The position numbers and the translations under genes are program-made. From the IMG/VR virus record IMGVR_UViG_3300044697_000009, positions 1 to 64,000 of that record: a stretch of 64,000 bases of DNA. One strand, 5' to 3'. Positions 32,493-64,000 of the stretch are shown here, piece by piece. The stretch comes from a virus. The notes beneath the pieces are model-generated. The model saw only the letters and a list, made by a program, of their open reading frames with translations. It did not search any database and was not told the origin of the DNA. Position 1 is the first letter of the stretch. Every line of letters begins with the position of its first letter.

Positions 32493-33992
32493 TTATGATC
32501 TTTTAGGATAAGGAAAATTTGTCCAGGTTTTTTCTAGTTTCTCGTATTTATTTTTCTTTAATAAAAGCACATACTTACCTTTTTTAGGTTTCTTTTTAAT
32601 CGGTAAGTCCTTGTATTGTAGTCTTGCGTATTCATCAAGGAGTTGTTTCACCTCCAATGGCATAGCCTTCCTGTTTTGAAACCCTCCTTCAGTATTCCAT
32701 TCTGGAAGCCATTCTATACCTAGGTCTTTAGCATATTTTTTCATGCTAGATGTTCTTGTAAAATGCCGTTCAGTTACTTCTTTACCATCTTTAACATAGA
32801 CCTGGGTTGATCCATAGTTTTTACCTAAGTAATCAAAATTACAAGCCTGGTATATAGTTCCTATTTCACCTGCATCAGGATCGCTATAAGCCGTAAATAT
32901 ACGTTTTTCTGTATTATTCACCATCCATCTACAACTAAACATAACTAGCCGTGAGCCTAAATTCTTCGGAGTCCAGCTAGCGCAGGCTCCTCGTTGAATC
33001 AAGGCTTCTAATTTCTTATCGAATTGATAGCTATTAGGCTCAGCTATCATCACGACTCCGCCTAATAACCCGTTGTATCTAGCTGTAAACACGTATCTAA
33101 CGCCAAATCCACAAGTCCCAAGCCATTCGTATCTTTCAATAAACTTTCTATGTTCATCCGTAATCTTTTCTTGAGCTAAAACGAATTCACTAGCTTTTAC
33201 GTTTAAAGGCATTCCATTTTTGATGTCTTCTTTAAGTAGTTGATCTCTCTTAAGTTTTTGCCAACATACATTTTTTGGAAGACTATCTTTTTTAATATTT
33301 CTATTATAGTCGGAAAACTCAGGTTTTAAATTAGTGTAATGACATAATTCGTACATCTGTTGTTCGGTTCTAACTTTAGATAAAGGAATAACGTGATCTA
33401 TATCCCATATTTCACCGTAGTTATCCCAAGTCATATTAGGTTGGAATTGAGACTCCAGATACATTTTAAGTTCTTCTAGAGTACATCCTATGTATTCAGA
33501 AAAATGAGTGTCCTTTTTCCAAGACGTTCGTTTTAATGCGTAATATAACCTATTTCTGAGTCTTCGGCTTAATTTATAGAATAAATCATTTTTTTCTCGA
33601 TCTTTTCTATAAGACCGTCTTTTTATTCTAATTATAGGCTTATTATCATGGTAATATTGTCTAGTTCTTTGTTTTATATTTTCTTTTTTAGATTCATAAT
33701 ATTTTTTAGTATTTATAGATCTGCATTCTTTACATTGTGTACATAATCCATCCGGATTGTTTTTATCTTTAGTAAAGTATTCGGCGGGTTTTTGAATGCC
33801 ACAAGTTCTACAAATTTTTGAAGAAACTGATATAGAATTATTTTTTGGATTATTTAGACGACGAATTCTTTTTTTCTTAGAACCGCAATTTCTGCAATAT
33901 GTTCTATATCCGTCTTTAGTTAAACTATGTTTATTGAATTCACTTATATTATATTCTGTATGACATAATGTACATGTTTTTCGATCAATCAT
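32493..33992 (-). CDS. Fusion: Zn-finger/HNH endonuclease plus Mom-like (GNAT) DNA-modifying domain
   Basis: Two CxxC..CxxC repeats; WDIDHVIPL..CHYTNL..N HNH core; C-terminal PKNLGSRL..AYSDP..G.IGTIYQACNF.YLG, resembling the phage Mu Mom family signature. Confidence 0.75.
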   Translation of the reverse strand: MIDRKTCTLCHTEYNISEFNKHSLTKDGYRTYCRNCGSKKKRIRRLNNPKNNSISVSSKICRTCGIQKPAEYFTKDKNNPDGLCTQCKECRSINTKKYYESKKENIKQRTRQYYHDNKPIIRIKRRSYRKDREKNDLFYKLSRRLRNRLYYALKRTSWKKDTHFSEYIGCTLEELKMYLESQFQPNMTWDNYGEIWDIDHVIPLSKVRTEQQMYELCHYTNLKPEFSDYNRNIKKDSLPKNVCWQKLKRDQLLKEDIKNGMPLNVKASEFVLAQEKITDEHRKFIERYEWLGTCGFGVRYVFTARYNGLLGGVVMIAEPNSYQFDKKLEALIQRGACASWTPKNLGSRLVMFSCRWMVNNTEKRIFTAYSDPDAGEIGTIYQACNFDYLGKNYGSTQVYVKDGKEVTERHFTRTSSMKKYAKDLGIEWLPEWNTEGGFQNRKAMPLEVKQLLDEYARLQYKDLPIKKKPKKGKYVLLLKKNKYEKLEKTWTNFPYPKRS

Positions 33993-34090: not shown

Positions 34091-35332
34091 TTAGGTATTT
34101 ACGATGTTGTTGACCAATACGTTTCTACCTGGGGCCATGCAAAATATCGCCTGATCCGAGTAGAGACGGAGTTCATAGGCTGCAGAGTTTTCCAAATCGC
34201 GGAAAAACTCTTCACCTTGACCAGGTCGTTTAAACGTCATATCAGTTGAACCAACTCGGAACCATTCTTCCATAGCAAGGATATAAGCATAACCTTGTTT
34301 AACGTAGATAGAAGGCTCGATTTCGATCTCACCGTTTTGTGAGAAGAAACGGAGAGCTTTCCCACCGTTTTGGAGTTGAACAGAAGAATACGATTCGTCG
34401 TATCTGCGGAGAGCAGCTTGGTCAGACAGAACGTTTGACCAGGTACGAGGATTCAAGAGAGCCAAGACGTTACCATCGAGACCTTTTTCAACTGCACGAG
34501 CAGTCGCATAGTTCAAGATGTTAAACGAAAGAGCGGAACTTGAAGCGGAATACGTATTACCTTTCCAGAGGTTAAACTGAGCCGCGTTGATATTAAACAA
34601 CGTAGTTTGATTCGTAAGAATCATATGGATACCAGGAAATTCGTTACCATAAGCGCCAGCGTGCCAGATAACGTCGTTAGTCTGAACGCCAGTAGCGTTA
34701 GTTGACAATGTAACGGTTTGAGCCGTCATATCAACAGCGGAAACTGAGAAGTTCCCACGAGATGTCGAACCGTTGCTGGAACGAATCTCAATCGGCATAC
34801 CTTCAGCACCAGCCCAGATACCAGGAGCCCATTCAGACGTAGTGATTGTAAGAACAGCGCCAGACGTACTAGCGATGGTCGCGTAACCAACTTGTCCATA
34901 GAGCATCTCGATTTCGAGCTTTTTAGCCATAGAACGGAGCATGTTGGCAACGAGGAATTTCGTCGCATCCATGAACGCTTTTTGACCACCAAGGGCTGCA
35001 CGAGAAGCAGCGGCATAACCGAGCAGTGAACGAAGCACTACAGGATTACCACGGACTTGAGCATCCTTGATTTGACCAGCGATAGGAGCATTCAAATTGA
35101 AAGCATCTTCATCACTAGCAGCAAAGGTGATACCATGTTCCAGACCCAAGATAACAGGTTGATGGTAAAGGTTACCAGGCTGTTTATCTTTAGACAGGAA
35201 CTTGATTTTATTCATGAGCTTAACTCCATCAGGAATCAGCTCGCCAAGTTTATCAGCGTAGGTTTCTTTGAAGAAACCGTTAAGGGTACCAACCGAGTTA
35301 TTCGGGGTACCAAATGTATTTGCACTCGCCAT
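34091..35332 (-). CDS. Major capsid protein
   Basis: 413 aa after the scaffold; AAGGAG RBS; C-ending codon bias; downstream terminator; HK97-like ending ELRLYSD...PG.N. Confidence 0.85.
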   Translation of the reverse strand: MASANTFGTPNNSVGTLNGFFKETYADKLGELIPDGVKLMNKIKFLSKDKQPGNLYHQPVILGLEHGITFAASDEDAFNLNAPIAGQIKDAQVRGNPVVLRSLLGYAAASRAALGGQKAFMDATKFLVANMLRSMAKKLEIEMLYGQVGYATIASTSGAVLTITTSEWAPGIWAGAEGMPIEIRSSNGSTSRGNFSVSAVDMTAQTVTLSTNATGVQTNDVIWHAGAYGNEFPGIHMILTNQTTLFNINAAQFNLWKGNTYSASSSALSFNILNYATARAVEKGLDGNVLALLNPRTWSNVLSDQAALRRYDESYSSVQLQNGGKALRFFSQNGEIEIEPSIYVKQGYAYILAMEEWFRVGSTDMTFKRPGQGEEFFRDLENSAAYELRLYSDQAIFCMAPGRNVLVNNIVNT

Positions 35333-36027: not shown

Positions 36028-36933
36028 TTACACCCCAAAAAAGGTTTTGAAATTTACTTTCTTACCAGTTTCTTTAGGTTCTGCTTTTTTACCAACATCG
36101 AGAGTTTTGTTGGAACCAACGGCGACTTTTTCTTTCGCCCTAGCAACATTTTTCTTTCTAATGCTGTTAATTTTGTCCTTACCAACAAGTTTCTCTACGA
36201 CTTCATCAGGCATTACCTGAAACATGGACTTTAAGTCTTCCATTACTTCTTCACGAACCAATGGAATAACGTCTTCTGGGAGGACGTCTTTACCATTTTG
36301 AAGCCCAACAAGCATATAATCTGCAATCTTTTTAACTATATACGGGGATTTAGGAAGATCAGTTTTTTGAAGTGCTTGATCCATAAGGATGTCATAACGT
36401 TCATATTGTTCTTCTGTAAGTCTTTGTTTTTGTTCTTCTAATGCAGCTTGCTTTTCTCTTTCACGTTCTTCTTTTAAGGCTTTAAGCTCAGCTTCAAGTT
36501 TTTCTTTAGCAAGTTGTTCAGGAGATTTCTTAGAGTCAGCAATTTCTTTCTCAATGATATCAGCTGCTAGTTTTTTAACATCTAGACCGATATGAGGGTC
36601 TGAAAGAACACGAGCTGGATCTTTTCGTAAATCTTCAATGAATTTAACTACTTCCTTTTGAAGACTTGAGAATTCTTCCATCCGTTTACCAGCGACTTTT
36701 GCCATCTGGAGTTGACGAGTGATGTATTCATCGTCATTTGGATCGAATTCTTCCTCGAATTCTTCACCGTCGACTTTGAGTTTAAATTTTCTTTTAGAAG
36801 GTGTGGAAGATTGAGCTGGTTTAGTCTGAGCTTGAGTTTCCTGAGTAGTTTCAGGGGTTTCAGCCGCAGTGTCTTGTGTTTCAATACTATCTGTTGCTTC
36901 TGGCGCCGCAGGAGCGGCTTGATCTTGTGCCAT
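36028..36933 (-). CDS. Capsid scaffolding protein
   Basis: Acidic disordered N-terminus, FKLKVDGEE motif, charged coiled coils, upstream of capsid. Confidence 0.8.
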   Translation of the reverse strand: MAQDQAAPAAPEATDSIETQDTAAETPETTQETQAQTKPAQSSTPSKRKFKLKVDGEEFEEEFDPNDDEYITRQLQMAKVAGKRMEEFSSLQKEVVKFIEDLRKDPARVLSDPHIGLDVKKLAADIIEKEIADSKKSPEQLAKEKLEAELKALKEEREREKQAALEEQKQRLTEEQYERYDILMDQALQKTDLPKSPYIVKKIADYMLVGLQNGKDVLPEDVIPLVREEVMEDLKSMFQVMPDEVVEKLVGKDKINSIRKKNVARAKEKVAVGSNKTLDVGKKAEPKETGKKVNFKTFFGV

Positions 36934-37015: not shown

Positions 37016-37243
37016 TTATACGGCTACACCTTTTTTACCTTTGATATTCAGATACGATTTATCCTTTAAAGCCTTCATTGGGTCTTGAGAAGCCTTAGCT
37101 TCGGCAGTAGCTTTGCCAGGATTGATTAAATCTTGTACCCTAGTGAATTTCTTAGGTTTTTCTTTCTCTTTTTTCTTACTTGAATCACTATAAGTTTCTT
37201 TCATGTCAGGTAACAAACCGTTAAAAGTGTTTATGGATGCCAT
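37016..37243 (-). CDS. Small basic protein with capsid-like N-terminus
   Basis: MASINTFNG...KETYSD vs capsid MASANTF...NGFFKETYAD; own late motif and AGGA RBS. Confidence 0.65.
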   Translation of the reverse strand: MASINTFNGLLPDMKETYSDSSKKKEKEKPKKFTRVQDLINPGKATAEAKASQDPMKALKDKSYLNIKGKKGVAV

Positions 37244-55145: not shown

Positions 55146-55218
55146 AGTCCCGTAGCTCAATGGTTAGAGCAGGCTCTTTATAAGGGTCAGGTTGCTGGTT
55201 CGAGTCCAGCCGGGACTA
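55146..55218 (+). tRNA. tRNA-Ile(UAU)
   Basis: Acceptor AGTCCCG/CGGGACT; D arm GCTC/GAGC; anticodon loop TT-TAT-AA; T arm GCTGG-TTCGAGT-CCAGC; discriminator A; no encoded CCA. Confidence 0.9.
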
Positions 55219-56345: not shown

Positions 56346-57178
56346 TGCTTAATGAAAAAGCTGTATTAGTGAATCTTAAGATCTCCCAGTGGACTGGTCG
56401 GAAGTTTGATAAACGTGCAACGTCAACGGTCGTAACGACGCATAACACTGACGTACAGGCAGGTAACTATTCAAAGAAACTCTTACCCGGAGCAAAAGAA
56501 CTTGACGCAATACAGAATACGTCAGCTAACATACGTAGCTTTTTTTATCAACAAACGTTGCCTTGGTGTAACGAAGGCTCTAGAATCCTTGCTAGTTCAA
56601 ATTACCTAGGTTTCACTAACGCGATTCGTACCCATAAATCAGAATTCGAAACCGCTGTCAAGGAGTTTATTAAAAAATACCCAGAACTTAAGGACATGGC
56701 CAAGACTAAACTCGGTGATTTGTTCAACGACTACGAATACCCAGACGTTGCGACACTTCAAAACTCGTTTGGTTGCGAAGTTTCCTACATGCCGGTGCCT
56801 ACAGTTGGTGACTTCCGCGTTGAGTTAACGCCTGAAGAAAAACAGAACTTCGAAAAACAAATTAAACTTGCTGAGACTCAGGCATTAAACGACGTATGGC
56901 AACGTTTAAACTCGGTCGTATCAAAAGCAGTTGATAAACTAAAGTCTCCTGATGCCGTGTTTCGTGATTCACTAATTGAGAATATTCAAGATTTATGTAA
57001 CCTTTTGCCAAGACTTAATGTCACTGAAAACGAAAACGTTGAGAAAATGCGGCAAGACGTACAAAAAATTGTTGACAGCATTAGCGCTGAAGATTGTAGA
57101 AAAATCCCCGAAGTCCGTTCACATGCCGCCGAACGCCTTGATGAAGCAATGAAACGTATGTCTGGGTTTATTTCATGA
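56346..57178 (+). CDS. DUF3150-like helical protein
   Basis: LVNLKISQWTGRK.D, TLPW...G.R, F...YP, YP; lies between AAA and vWA genes. Confidence 0.6.
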
Positions 57179-57378
57179 AACCTTTGACTGAACTCGAATA
57201 CAAACTTTTAACGCCGGGCATGAAAGTTAAGTGTATTGATCATACACTTACAACGAGTCTTGAAAAATATAAAATCTATAAAGTAAAAACTATATGTTTT
57301 AATTGTATTGTTGTTGAAGAAACTCCGCATTTTTTACCGTTTGCTTATTCTAGATTTACGTTAGATTTAGGGGAATAA
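57175..57378 (+). CDS. FTLDL-family small protein, copy 1
   Basis: L.PG.KVKC...IY...RFTLDL. Confidence 0.7.
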   Translation: MKPLTELEYKLLTPGMKVKCIDHTLTTSLEKYKIYKVKTICFNCIVVEETPHFLPFAYSRFTLDLGE

Positions 57379-57380
57379 CT

Positions 57381-58499
57381 ATGAACGAAAAGATTTCAAA
57401 AGCAAAAGCATTGCTGGTACTTGATCAACCGTTTTTCGCAAGTCTCCTTTTGACGATGCCGATTCATGAAGACAAAAAGATTACTACAATGGCAACAAAC
57501 GGCGATTGGATCAAGTTTAACCCAGAATTCGTTGATAAATTATCGATTCAAGAACTTATCTTTGTCCTAGCGCATGAAACAATGCACTGCGTTTTCCAGC
57601 ACATGCTTAGACGTGGGGATAAAAACCATAATAAATACAATATTGCGGGGGATTATGTCATTAACGATCATTTGATTCGCGAACATGTAGGCGAAATGCC
57701 TCATGGCGGACTTCATAACCCCCAGTTAGTACAAGAAGGCAATGGGACGACTGAAGGCGTTTATGCCTTATTACCTAAGGAAGACGAACAAAAAACAGCG
57801 GGCAACATGGGTCAAGGTGGAAGCATGGATGAAGTCGAGTCCGATGACTTGACCCAGGCAGAAGCAAATCAAAAGTCTGAAGAAATGCGAGTCAAGGTTA
57901 TTCAGGCAAAGAACGCGGCTAAGACGTGTGGCAAATTCTCAGCAGGCCTTGAGAGACTCGTTAATGATTTAACCCGCCCTAGAATTGACTGGAGAACAGT
58001 ATTGAGACGATTCTTAAGCGATCGGGCAAAAGTTGATCTGAGTTATGCAAAACCTAAGCGGCGTTTCATGGCCGACGACGTAAACCTGCCAAGTCTGTTA
58101 GGTGAGCAGTTAGGTGAAATCGTCATTGCAGTTGATTGTTCAGGCAGTATTGATGACAAACTTCTAAACGAGTTTGGTACTGAAATTTCAAGTATCAAAG
58201 AAGACACAAAACCAGTGAAAGTCCACGTAATTTATTTTGATTCTGAAGTCCTAAGGCATGATGAATTCTCAAGAGACGACGACCTTCGCATCAACGCATG
58301 CGGTGGCGGTGGGACGGCATTCTCACCCGTGTTTAGATATATCCAAAACAAAAACATTAGCCCTGTGGCATGTGTATTTTTGACTGATCTTCAGTGCAAT
58401 GACTTCGGTCAAACACCGAGTTACAATGTAATGTGGGCATCGACTGACAATGGCAATGCGCCGTTTGGTGAAATCTTATTATTGAAAGATGCCGCATGA
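57381..58499 (+). CDS. Metallopeptidase (HExxH) plus vWA domain protein (DUF2201-like)
   Basis: T.ATNG, LAHETMH...H..R, NIAGDYVIN; MIDAS VDCSGS, GGGGTAF, FLTD. Confidence 0.9.
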   Translation: MNEKISKAKALLVLDQPFFASLLLTMPIHEDKKITTMATNGDWIKFNPEFVDKLSIQELIFVLAHETMHCVFQHMLRRGDKNHNKYNIAGDYVINDHLIREHVGEMPHGGLHNPQLVQEGNGTTEGVYALLPKEDEQKTAGNMGQGGSMDEVESDDLTQAEANQKSEEMRVKVIQAKNAAKTCGKFSAGLERLVNDLTRPRIDWRTVLRRFLSDRAKVDLSYAKPKRRFMADDVNLPSLLGEQLGEIVIAVDCSGSIDDKLLNEFGTEISSIKEDTKPVKVHVIYFDSEVLRHDEFSRDDDLRINACGGGGTAFSPVFRYIQNKNISPVACVFLTDLQCNDFGQTPSYNVMWASTDNGNAPFGEILLLKDAA

Positions 58500-58705
58500 A
58501 ACCGTTAGATGAAATCTCTTTGAAGTTTTTAAAGCCCGGCACGAAACTTAAATGTATTAATGCCATATATGAATTGAGAAATGGAGAAATATACGAATTT
58601 ATGGAAATTTATTCCATTAACAATGGAAATATAACAATTAATTTAAAAAATGTTAAACATACTTATTTCATTAACCGTTTTACACTAGACTTGGGATGTG
58701 AATGA
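58496..58705 (+). CDS. FTLDL-family small protein, copy 2
   Basis: LKFLKPGTKLKC...EIYEF...RFTLDL. Confidence 0.7.
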   Translation: MKPLDEISLKFLKPGTKLKCINAIYELRNGEIYEFMEIYSINNGNITINLKNVKHTYFINRFTLDLGCE

Positions 58706-59349
58706 AAGCATTTAATAACAATACTTACATAAAACAAGAGATCGTGGGAAATCTAGTAAAATCAAGATTCACATCTCAAAACATTACACTACAAACGGAT
58801 TCATTACCGAAGTGGTTAGTCTTTTATTTAAATTGCCAACCTGATAAAAATAGAATTCTTGAAGTCATCAACGCTATAGAGCCGGGAATGGACTTAGATA
58901 ATATAAAGCAGTTATTCATGATTCATGTCCTTGAATTCTCACTACTTCAGTTCGATCATTCAAAAAATCTGAAAGTTAAAAAAGCGATTATACAAGTAAT
59001 AAATCTTTATAAACAAAACAATACTGACAAAAAAAAATGGAATGCCGCTCAATCCGCCGCTTATGCCGCCTCTAATGCTACTTATGCCGCTAATGCCATT
59101 AATGCCGCTTATGCCGCTAATGCCGCCTATGCCGCCTCTAATGCTACTTATGCCGCTAATGCCGCCGCCTATGCCGCCTCTAATGCTACTTATGCCGCTA
59201 ATGCCGCTAATGCCGCCGCCTATGCCGCCGCCTATGCCGCCGCTAATGCTACTTATGCCGCTTGTGCCGCCGCTTATGCCGCCGCTCAAAACAGGTTATT
59301 AGACTACTTAATTAAATTAATACAAGACTTAAAGGTAAATGCTGCATGA
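58702..59349 (+). CDS. Protein with Ala/Tyr/Asn repeat tract
   Basis: AAYAA/NATYAAN repeats ending QNRLL..LI.L. Confidence 0.7.
   Translation: MKAFNNNTYIKQEIVGNLVKSRFTSQNITLQTDSLPKWLVFYLNCQPDKNRILEVINAIEPGMDLDNIKQLFMIHVLEFSLLQFDHSKNLKVKKAIIQVINLYKQNNTDKKKWNAAQSAAYAASNATYAANAINAAYAANAAYAASNATYAANAAAYAASNATYAANAANAAAYAAAYAAANATYAACAAAYAAAQNRLLDYLIKLIQDLKVNAA
59041..59286 (+). repeat. Degenerate coding tandem repeat (AAT/TAT-GCC-GCN)
   Basis: TATGCCGCCTCTAATGCTACTTATGCCGCTAATGCC occurs three times. Confidence 0.9.
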
Positions 59350-59570
59350 CTCCTATAACTAAAGACATGCTCATATATTTACAACGTGGGACGAAGGTAA
59401 AAAGCCTTGAAAATAGAGGCCACAGGGAAATTGGATTAGTAAAAGATAAGATTTATACGATTAATAGAATTTATCCTACAGAAAGTTTAGATGGATATCT
59501 TTCATTACAAGAAGTTCCTAGTCCTATTTATTTATCAACTAGATTTACATTGGACTTAGAGGAAAAATGA
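59346..59570 (+). CDS. FTLDL-family small protein, copy 3
   Basis: YLQRGTKVKS...KIYTI...RFTLDLE. Confidence 0.7.
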   Translation: MTPITKDMLIYLQRGTKVKSLENRGHREIGLVKDKIYTINRIYPTESLDGYLSLQEVPSPIYLSTRFTLDLEEK

Positions 59571-62234: not shown

Positions 62235-62564
62235 ATGAAGTTTTACTTAACAATATTCGCATTGATTTTATTAGGCTGTAGTCCTGGAGACTACGCTACG
62301 TTACAAGGCCCACCAGGGCCGCAAGGTCCTATTGGAAATCCTGGTAGTAGTGTTACAATGGTACAGTTTTGTTCGAATTATTCAACTACATACCCGTCAA
62401 CATTTCCTGAATACGGATTCTGTGTATCAAATAATCTTTATGCAACGTATTGGAATGGGACAGATGCTTGGACTGCGGAAATCGTACCTGGGTATTATGA
62501 TTCAACATCAACGTCTGCTCCTTGTAGTTTTACTGTTTTACCTAACTGTGTGGTGGAAAATTGA
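62235..62564 (+). CDS. Lipoprotein with short collagen-like repeat
   Basis: Lipobox LLGC; GPPGPQGPIGNPG; four further Cys. Confidence 0.75.
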   Translation: MKFYLTIFALILLGCSPGDYATLQGPPGPQGPIGNPGSSVTMVQFCSNYSTTYPSTFPEYGFCVSNNLYATYWNGTDAWTAEIVPGYYDSTSTSAPCSFTVLPNCVVEN

Positions 62565-62782
62565 ATCGCAAATACAAACGTCTTAATAAATTTATGTTGA
62601 AATTCTTACAACCCGGAGTTAAAGTAAAATACGTAGGAAATCTTCGAGAAAATCATCATTATAAATTAAAACGTTATAAAGTCTATGAATTCATTAATTA
62701 TTTTGGTTACAATCATGTGATTATTCATGCTGAGAATCGTAATATCAACGTTCCATGCCATGCATTTACATTGGATATCTAA
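62561..62782 (+). CDS. FTLDL-family small protein, copy 4
   Basis: LKFLQPGVKVKY...VYEF...AFTLDI. Confidence 0.7.
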   Translation: MNRKYKRLNKFMLKFLQPGVKVKYVGNLRENHHYKLKRYKVYEFINYFGYNHVIIHAENRNINVPCHAFTLDI

Positions 62783-62994
62783 TGAAGACATTTCCTAAAC
62801 ATTTAAAAAAACTTCTAGTACCTGGAGTTAAACTAAAGTGTGTAGATGATTCTTCAAATACGCGTAAAGATAAAATAAAAATGAATGAGATTTACACATT
62901 TGACGGCTGGCATGAAGTATGGGACAATGAAATTTATATAAAAGAAAACAATCAGTCTTGGTTTATAGATCGGTTTACATTGGATTTAGAATGA
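62782..62994 (+). CDS. FTLDL-family small protein, copy 5
   Basis: LLVPGVKLKC...EIYTF...RFTLDLE; ATG 62782. Confidence 0.7.
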   Translation: MKTFPKHLKKLLVPGVKLKCVDDSSNTRKDKIKMNEIYTFDGWHEVWDNEIYIKENNQSWFIDRFTLDLE

Positions 62995-63305
62995 CCCTCA
63001 CTGCTGAAGCATTAAAATTTTTGCCAGATGGCACAAGACTTAGAAGCCTAGTGAATGATGTTGGTCTTGAATTTAATAAAATCTATACTTTAGATATATT
63101 TCCTAAGACTTATTCCACACTTAATGGAATGTTAAAAGAATTATACGCAGATAAATTAATTGAATTAATTCCTGATGGCGTAGGTTTATTATCTAAAATC
63201 AAGTTTAATCGCACTGAATTTAAAACACAAGTATTATCACTCAAAGAATTTCCATATAAAGAATTCCCTATTAGTTATTTTTCTCTAGACTTGGAGTCAT
63301 TATGA
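62991..63305 (+). CDS. FTLDL-family protein, copy 6, carrying a major-capsid N-terminal segment
   Basis: LKFLPDGTRL...KIYTL...[TLNGMLKELYADKLIELIPDGVGLLSKIKF]...YFSLDLE. Confidence 0.8.
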   Translation: MTLTAEALKFLPDGTRLRSLVNDVGLEFNKIYTLDIFPKTYSTLNGMLKELYADKLIELIPDGVGLLSKIKFNRTEFKTQVLSLKEFPYKEFPISYFSLDLESL

Positions 63306-63478
63306 AAATGAAAATCGTTGAATCCTTGAAACCAATCTGTGTAATCTGTGGCGAAAAAAACCTAGAGTTGTATTACAATGACACAGAAGTCCGGTGTTTA
63401 AAATGTATTCCAACAGGGCATAATGTCGAAACTAGAAATGAAACGTTTGAAGTCAAGAAACCTGAGGCGTTACACTAA
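63302..63478 (+). CDS. Small Zn-ribbon protein (58 aa, not in ORF track)
   Basis: CVICG...CLKC; ATGA and TAATG overlaps on either side. Confidence 0.6.
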   Translation: MKMKIVESLKPICVICGEKNLELYYNDTEVRCLKCIPTGHNVETRNETFEVKKPEALH

Positions 63479-63759
63479 TGTGGAAAGTTGGCGATAAAAT
63501 CAAATGTATTTTATATGATGGCGATTCTATCCAACCTTGGATAACTATAGGAAAGACCTATGAAATACTCGAAGTCATAAAAAATTATCATTACGATAAT
63601 GAACATAAAGATAAATATAATCAACAATATAGAATAATGAATGACCAAGGTGGAAGTTGGTGGATACAACCGCATTGTTTTAAACTAGTATTTAAAACTA
63701 CGGGCCCAGAGAAATCTGAAGTCGAAATCCTGGATAGAATACAAGAGAATTTTAAATGA
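63478..63759 (+). CDS. SH3/KOW-like small protein, distant relative of the FTLDL family
   Basis: KVGDKIKCI...ITIGKTYEI...CFKL. Confidence 0.6.
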   Translation: MWKVGDKIKCILYDGDSIQPWITIGKTYEILEVIKNYHYDNEHKDKYNQQYRIMNDQGGSWWIQPHCFKLVFKTTGPEKSEVEILDRIQENFK

Positions 63760-63974
63760 AACCATTAGATGAAACTACAGTAAAATTCCTAACGCCCGGA
63801 GTGAAATTAAAATGTATCGTTAAGGGGGAAAAATATTCTCTACAAACAAATAAAACATACACATTTAACAACATATCTGGAATAATTAACGATATAACAG
63901 TAATTTGTGTTATGGAAGGAAATAAAAAATTAGGCCCATATTTTGCTTATAGATTTACATTGGATTTAGAATGA
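63756..63974 (+). CDS. FTLDL-family small protein, copy 7
   Basis: MKPLDE..VKFLTPGVKLKC...YTF...RFTLDLE. Confidence 0.7.
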   Translation: MKPLDETTVKFLTPGVKLKCIVKGEKYSLQTNKTYTFNNISGIINDITVICVMEGNKKLGPYFAYRFTLDLE

Positions 63975-64000
63975 CTGATATTGAATACAAACTTTTAACT
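63971..64000 (+). CDS. FTLDL-family copy 8, truncated by the window edge
   Basis: MTDIEYKLLT matches copy 1 (LTELEYKLLT). Confidence 0.5.
   Translation, partial: MTDIEYKLLT

Follow-up and report, generated by a model that had tools for sequence, protein, structure and literature searches.

Capsid proteins of phages, and short segments of them, can be specific ligands of other proteins. For example, the Gol peptide of T4 gp23 acts with Lit and EF-Tu. Besides, a short peptide, the capsid-targeting sequence, brings the non-structural T4 proteins IPI-III and Alt to the head as it assembles; it lies at the N-terminus, is removed by the prohead protease, and does not copy the capsid protein. T4 gp61.1 (AAD42508.1, 54 amino acids) does carry a local copy of capsid sequence: its residues 2-38 match residues 57-93 of gp23, in the N-terminal part of this major capsid protein, at 17 of 37 positions (pairwise E 6e-9). 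Gene 61.1 (L071:3967-4131; the gp23 gene is L073) lies between gene 61.2 and the primase gene 61, and our literature search found no functional study of gp61.1. The copy spans the region of gp23 where the head protease cuts. In the 80alpha procapsid, the C-terminal helix-and-hook of the scaffold grips the helix of the capsid N-terminal arm (N-arm), as seen at near-atomic resolution, and CpmB of SaPI1 binds the capsid protein likewise via a shared C-terminal motif (PMC5644958). Furthermore, a capsid protein is the direct trigger of bacterial immunity by CapRelSJ46 (PMC9712102).

The present study concerns a mini-protein of an uncultured phage that was predicted from the DNA to carry a piece of the phage's major capsid protein. 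It is of the type seen in gp61.1, namely, a small protein that is encoded in the non-structural arm, among replication genes, and part of which is significantly similar to the N-terminal region of the capsid. It differs from gp61.1 in two respects: the T4 capsid belongs to another family (gp23 type), and the copy makes up most of gp61.1, whereas here it is a loop insert in a folded scaffold. No orthologue of the mini-protein was found in related phages. If the insert acts as a mimic of the N-arm, the closest analogy would be the 80alpha/CpmB case, where a protein with the motif of the normal partner competes for the binding site. However, CpmB is a satellite-encoded copy of the scaffold side, and here the phage itself copies the capsid side. 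CapRelSJ46 and Gol/Lit also differ, as those host sensors answer the real capsid and no phage-encoded peptide copy is involved. Unlike the capsid-targeting sequence of T4, the capsid-like peptide is internal (amino acids 43-72). Our analysis portrays the gene as a real case of gene mosaicism and a plausible case of phage molecular mimicry; the functional reading rests on one sequence.

Results

Genome setting and gene layout

The analyzed stretch of 64,000 nucleotides (the window) opens a phage genome of 85,261 bp, which is a single contig whose ends overlap. The metagenome runs that hold the phage are from peat. The minus strand forms the structural arm, with large terminase, portal, tail protein, and capsid genes. 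From about 53 kb, the plus strand carries the replication and accessory arm, which includes an AAA ATPase, a DUF2201 metallopeptidase/VWA protein, a receiver domain, and a family-B polymerase. A tRNA gene (55146-55218, plus strand; Rfam 66.6 bits) lies just 5′ of the AAA ATPase gene. The accessory arm also contains the dispersed members of a second small-protein family (63478-63759 in the window; 70527-70766, 71858-72100, and 76697-77131 in the genome), which have an SH3-like start, GDK[IV], and share a C-terminal E.E.LDR.Q.NFK motif.

The chimeric mini-protein gene (62991-63305, plus strand) encodes 104 amino acids. Its start codon, ATG 62991, overlaps the preceding gene's stop codon (ATGA), and its own stop (63303-63305) overlaps the ATG of the following gene in the same manner. 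The ATG in the overlap is the true start, rather than TTG 62958. The gene is part of a translationally coupled operon, and it looks maintained: the frame is intact, both ends carry the ATGA overlap, and the same sequence occurs in the contigs of two peat runs.

Five segments make up the protein. The N-terminal half of the scaffold (62991-63098; amino acids 1-36, LKFLPDGTRLRS ... KIYTLD) corresponds to positions 3-41 of the paralog HMM. It is followed by an upstream linker (63099-63116; amino acids 37-42, FPKTYS) with no clear match to scaffold or capsid, the N-arm copy (63117-63206; amino acids 43-72), and a downstream linker (63207-63224; amino acids 73-78, NRTEFK). The C-terminal half of the scaffold (63225-63302; amino acids 79-104, ending in YFSLDLESL) covers HMM positions 48-71. 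Among metatranscriptome contigs, the sole match was a 208-nt peat contig identical to 63313-63520, in the zinc-ribbon-like gene directly 3′ of the chimera; the chimeric ORF lies outside it. The phage or its DNA was thus present in the RNA library of a third study.

A tandem family of SH3-like mini-proteins

The scaffold belongs to a tandemly amplified family of eight SH3-like copies of about 70 amino acids at 57.1-64.2 kb. Six complete plus-strand paralogs lack the insert, at 57175-57378, 58496-58705, 59346-59570, 62561-62782, 62755-62994 (directly 5′ of the chimera), and 63756-63974; an eighth family member begins within the window (63971-64000, plus strand) and continues to genome position 64174. 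The capsid-like insert is found in none of these seven siblings.

A profile of the seven siblings matched the chimeric ORF with an E value of 1.2e-6, the top non-training match among 221 ORFs. The match comes in two pieces, amino acids 2-36 and 79-102, between which 42 residues (6 + 30 capsid-like + 6) stand in place of a 6-position loop. This confirms the original prediction that the insert sits in the variable loop of a paralog scaffold of about 70 amino acids whose siblings lack it. The middle of the family varies in length and sequence; the siblings, of about 67-79 amino acids, have a short middle loop, and the chimera at 104 is outside the family length. The family motifs LKFL.PG.K.K, KIYTF, and RFTLDLE appear in the chimera as LKFLPDGTRLRS, KIYTL, and YFSLDLE, respectively. 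With 22 bits, compared with 90-107 for the siblings, it is the most divergent member of the family. Thus, the chimera shares with this FTLDLE family the LKFL.PG.K.K strand, the KIYTF strand, the FTLDLE end, the coupled operon, and the SH3-like barrel, and it is the sole member with a 42-residue loop and with similarity to a structural protein.

In the AlphaFold2 (AF2) model, the two scaffold pieces form a confident small barrel (pLDDT 82-91 overall and for the N-terminal half, 88-89 for the C-terminal half). Residues 38-77 are a low-confidence loop, in which the insert has pLDDT <50 and a predicted helix at amino acids 48-59. The model thus suggests that the insert would project from the barrel as a flexible loop with an amphipathic helix. 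The likeness of the barrel to SH3, CPH, KOW, and Tudor domains is weak (Z 4-5.6).

Outside this genome, an alignment scan of IMG/VR gave no match to the paralog family, and the ESM Atlas returned no named relatives. In the two closest complete relatives, the best ORF matched the family with an E value of only 2.7e-4. An identical 22-nt junction, made up of the end of a mini-gene and the ATGAC start of the next gene, occurs at 62974-62995 and at 63954-63975 and is common to two otherwise diverged paralog pairs. This suggests either gene conversion or a translational-coupling signal under strong constraint.

The capsid protein and its gene neighborhood

The major capsid protein gene (34091-35332, minus strand) encodes 413 amino acids with an HK97 fold (phrog_14242, E 4.5e-15), and its model matched phage capsids and encapsulins with a Foldseek probability of 1.0. 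At least 2,408 relatives of this capsid occur in public metagenomes, many of them on 80-95-kb contigs. In the capsid model, residues 1-50 form an N-arm ahead of the E-loop, with helices at 17-25, 29-32, and 39-42. The copied segment, residues 16-45 (35198-35287, minus strand), is nearly invariant among 120 relatives that are 73-82% identical overall; it ranks 78th of 384 windows in conservation and is included in the major-head-protein family profile.

Two genes upstream of the capsid gene lies a minus-strand gene (36028-36933) for a protein of 301 amino acids. Its N-terminus is acidic and of low complexity, its middle resembles a coiled coil, and its C-terminal tail, F[KR].FFG[VF], is conserved in more than 20 relatives. 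No scaffold family or named family of Pfam or PHROGs matched it. By position and sequence character, it is the putative scaffolding protein and a candidate partner of the N-arm. The co-variation of its tail with the N-arm (r 0.36) is below that of the whole capsid (r 0.69) and thus uninformative. No head protease was found among the head-module ORFs scanned.

The next late gene of interest (37016-37243, minus strand) encodes a Lys-rich small protein of 75 amino acids, the first ~20 residues of which resemble capsid residues 1-27. The protein is kept in five relatives, in three of which it is 51-58% identical, and the five also keep its start, MAS.NTF..NG..KETY[AS]D. A profile of this start found the capsid as the best non-self match in three genomes, weakly (E 0.0013, 0.0086, and 0.065), and these weak likenesses suggest that the N-terminus of the capsid can be reused as a module.

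The match between the insert and the capsid arm

The translation of 63117-63206 (plus strand) is TLNGMLKELYADKLIELIPDGVGLLSKIKF, and that of 35198-35287 (minus strand) is TLNGFFKETYADKLGELIPDGVKLMNKIKF. The two align without gaps, with 23 of 30 residues and 60 of 90 nucleotides identical; a different synonymous codon is used at 11 of the 23 identical residues, so that the similarity originally described was reproduced in every count. The GC content of the insert is 25.6%, and that of the capsid segment 40%. By BLASTP among the 221 ORFs of the whole 85-kb genome, this pair gave an E value of 2.7e-10 (50 bits), and no other match links a structural ORF to a non-structural one. When the genome was scanned in six frames, a capsid N-terminal profile built from the first 55 residues of the 120 relatives matched the ORF at E 1.1e-15, and the next non-capsid match was at E 0.23. 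The match is far above chance.

The part of the capsid that is matched is confined to residues 16-45 (possibly 13-45). The ORF gave no capsid-family match in Pfam or PHROGs, and the spine helix, P-domain, A-domain, and E-loop of the HK97-fold capsid (phrog_14242) are absent from the mini-protein. Judged by its sequence, the mini-protein is not a capsid paralog.

The insert agrees with the capsid family consensus at 24 of 30 positions, with the best relative at 25, and with the phage's own capsid at 23. The suggestion that it was captured from the capsid gene of a related phage therefore fits well, as the family consensus matches it at least as closely as the own capsid does. Most residues kept in the insert are those that are invariant in capsids. 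It departs from the 120 relatives at three invariant or nearly invariant positions (F21L, K38G, and N41S), which places it outside the capsid's own constraints, and it may have lost the contact. Since the copied segment is nearly invariant among the capsid relatives, the capsid was the source and the mini-protein the recipient. The gene is a true mosaic, in which a segment of the capsid N-arm, residues 16-45, was copied into the variable loop of the paralog scaffold, and the donor is a phage of this capsid family.

Artefact and recent capture

An artefact is highly improbable, whether through a chimeric assembly or through a similarity that arose by chance, by convergence, or by duplication of the family's L.PG.K motif within the ORF. 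The first strand of the family, LKFL.PG.KLK, does loosely resemble the capsid's LIPDGVKL, and the ORF contains repeats in register, 147 nt apart. Nevertheless, a repeat of this kind was reached by 8% of codon shuffles and is not significant, so internal duplication was rejected. A kinship of family and capsid through an L.P(D)G.KL motif was likewise rejected, as the paralog profile does not match the capsid, and chance is opposed by the N-arm profile match (E 1e-15).

The assembly was also found to be sound. An identical chimeric protein is present on two assembled contigs. The 85,048-nt contigs of two peat DNA runs, which may derive from the source samples, are identical across 61.5-64 kb at a depth of 17-18. 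Furthermore, the insert is identical to 48 capsid N-arm DNA segments of related contigs at only 51-64 of 90 positions (at most 71%). A k-mer misassembly is therefore impossible. Near-identical donor DNA was sought with a pattern of 32 specified bases in the viral contigs of IMG/VR and with an exact 21-mer scan of JGI metagenome contigs; neither found any, both having low power below about 95% identity. Thus neither misassembly nor a near-identical capsid donor, two outcomes that the original prediction had raised against itself, was borne out.

A singleton in a fast-changing region

The chimera is a singleton in all databases searched. Besides the ORF itself, no homologue was found among 5.8 billion protein clusters in a near-length search, and amino acids 36-80 used as a query against longer proteins gave no match at all, which is weak evidence. 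A full HMMER search of 1.8 billion representatives found no homologue either; it returned five capsid N-terminal fragments of 53-92 amino acids and two long repetitive proteins. None was found in IMG/VR or JGI metagenome contigs, and in 10 related phage records only the capsid gene matched. The concern that the insert might be absent from relatives thus applies solely because none of them has the gene at all. The early region turns over fast, with 4-5 of about 60 ORFs matched in phages whose capsids are 77-79% identical.

The capsid gene itself is broken up in many relatives. In 21 of 55 of them (related IMG/VR loci L022-L054), it is split within the first ~90 codons, after codons 21, 49-57, 63-68, 78-80, or 86-89; examples are L041:1719-1971, L032:1217-1876, and L028:1031-2337. 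The interruption contains an Rfam group I intron (50.3 bits) in one case and a GIY-YIG ORF (Pfam E 4.9e-8) in another. A mini-exon of 36 codons, comprising residues 22-57, is present in L028 and L039. With 21 of 55 genes split early, this region is probably subject to frequent breaks and repair, which would make it a plausible source of stray segments. The window's own capsid gene is unsplit. Directly 3′ of it, an ORF of 499 amino acids (32493-33992, minus strand) has profile matches of Lar-like, endonuclease VII/HNH, and Mom-like DNA-modification type (PHROGs E 1e-20 to 1e-21), and it has the look of a free-standing nuclease insertion next to that gene.

These observations bear on a reading in which the insert is a tolerated passenger. 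An accident of ectopic recombination or repair would have put a capsid 5′ segment into a permissive loop; the barrel would work like those of its siblings, if at all, and the insert would play no part related to the N-arm and would be slowly decaying. We consider this almost as likely as a functional mimic of the N-arm. The singleton status, the fast turnover of the early region, and the intron, homing-endonuclease, and split-gene record of the capsid 5′ region, as a plausible source of stray DNA ends, all favor it. So do features of the chimera itself: the family middle varies in length and sequence anyway, the insert is modeled as disordered, three invariant or nearly invariant capsid positions are substituted, and the chimera is the most divergent member by profile score. 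In contrast, the intact frame and operon coupling speak against a passenger, as does the comparable capsid N-terminal copy in an unrelated phage, T4 gp61.1. The base composition considered below also speaks against it.

Is the peptide constrained?

The original prediction took the different synonymous codons to mean that the peptide rather than the DNA is conserved. As an argument for selection, this could not be upheld. Between insert and own capsid, pS is 0.78, which is saturated, and pN is 0.22, like capsid-capsid pairs; the median pS among capsid pairs is 0.81, that between insert and capsids 0.78-0.80, and pN is about 0.2 in both. Synonymous sites are saturated across the family and the capsid side alone is strongly constrained, so the synonymous-codon argument has no weight alone, and its removal adds to the case for a passenger. 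A conserved capsid donor with different codons would look the same.

The GC content at third codon positions (GC3) is more informative. It is 0.17 in the insert, 0.19-0.27 in the flanks and siblings, 0.50 in the own capsid segment, and 0.27-0.53 in most sampled capsids; the insert thus fits its new context. In neutral simulations, a typical capsid segment drifted under AT-biased mutation until GC3 reached 0.17. The 23 of 30 identical residues were retained in 1.3-1.5% of the runs, or in 5-12% with laxer stops; the neutral path therefore destroys the peptide in about 88-99% of simulations. A passenger would thus need a donor that was already AT-rich, as are 8% of the unique sampled capsid segments. 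Either there was such an unsampled donor, or the peptide was held while its codons adapted. The GC3 pattern is moderate evidence for constraint on the peptide, roughly five-fold, and not decisive.

This argument applies equally to a reading in which the constraint has nothing to do with capsid-like binding, and the helix instead packs on the barrel or self-associates in a new structural role. In its favor, the substitutions T24L and G30I make the helix more hydrophobic, with a mean hydropathy of +0.48 instead of -0.08, and its hydrophobic moment drops from 0.49 to 0.30. However, AF2 leaves the insert unpacked on the barrel (pLDDT <50), and most of the residues kept are the capsid-invariant ones. 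We regard such a role as quite improbable.

Discussion

The mosaic origin of the gene is established; what the insert may do is a matter of graded likelihood. We assign a probability of about 0.35 to the reading in which the mini-protein would dock, via its copy of the arm, on the partner that the N-arm has in head assembly. As 23-25 of 30 residues of an almost invariant capsid segment are kept, the loop would bind with the specificity of the capsid N-arm, and a head-assembly partner would be its target because the C-terminal tail of the scaffold grips the N-arm in the procapsids of other HK97-fold phages. The foremost candidate for the partner is the F[KR].FFG[VF] tail of the putative scaffold (36028-36933); else, it may be a neighboring capsid subunit. 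In that case, the mini-protein would be a competitor or an adaptor, which might hold assembly back, disturb a co-infecting relative, or enter the head.

In favor of such docking, the mini-protein carries the N-arm binding motif (23 of 30 residues of the own capsid, 24 of the consensus). A second N-arm look-alike, the start of the small late protein at 37016-37243, is kept in relatives and can be counted as a precedent. The intact, coupled gene and the GC3 pattern also favor docking, and the 80alpha/CpmB case and T4 gp61.1 are further precedents. Against it stand the singleton status of the gene, the identification of the scaffold by position and sequence character only, the three altered positions, at which the contact may be lost, and the possible combination of an AT-rich unsampled donor with a recent neutral capture.

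A displayed N-arm peptide could also serve as an immune decoy that soaks up or blocks a host sensor of this capsid segment before real capsid is made. Capsid proteins do directly trigger bacterial immunity, e.g., CapRelSJ46 (PMC9712102), and a segment conserved across thousands of relatives would offer a sensor a suitable pattern. The gene is placed among replication and accessory genes in the non-structural arm, and the altered invariant or near-invariant residues could turn an activator into a non-activating binder. On the other hand, our literature search found no phage-encoded capsid-peptide decoy, and an early copy of the trigger should set off an abortive-infection sensor, not silence it. 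Thus, a decoy appears unlikely.

Returning to the N-arm mimic, a broader proposal may be put forward tentatively, and we hold it to be rather doubtful. The mini-protein would be a working display protein that presents the N-arm apart from, or before, the capsid and engages a scaffold tail (its own or a rival's) or a host sensor. Along with T4 gp61.1, it would be one of a recurrent and so far undescribed class of capsid-peptide mimics.

If the loop is a passenger, the gene would be a record of how exon-sized pieces of structural genes are shuffled into fast-evolving accessory families. If, instead, the loop keeps the specificity of the N-arm, this phage would have grafted a copy of part of its own capsid protein onto a small, soluble scaffold. 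The mini-protein would then be a compact natural probe or blocker of the capsid-scaffold contact in a large group of uncultured phages, whose capsid has more than 2,400 relatives. With T4 gp61.1 alongside it, a class of accessory proteins made from capsid peptides would seem to have been overlooked.
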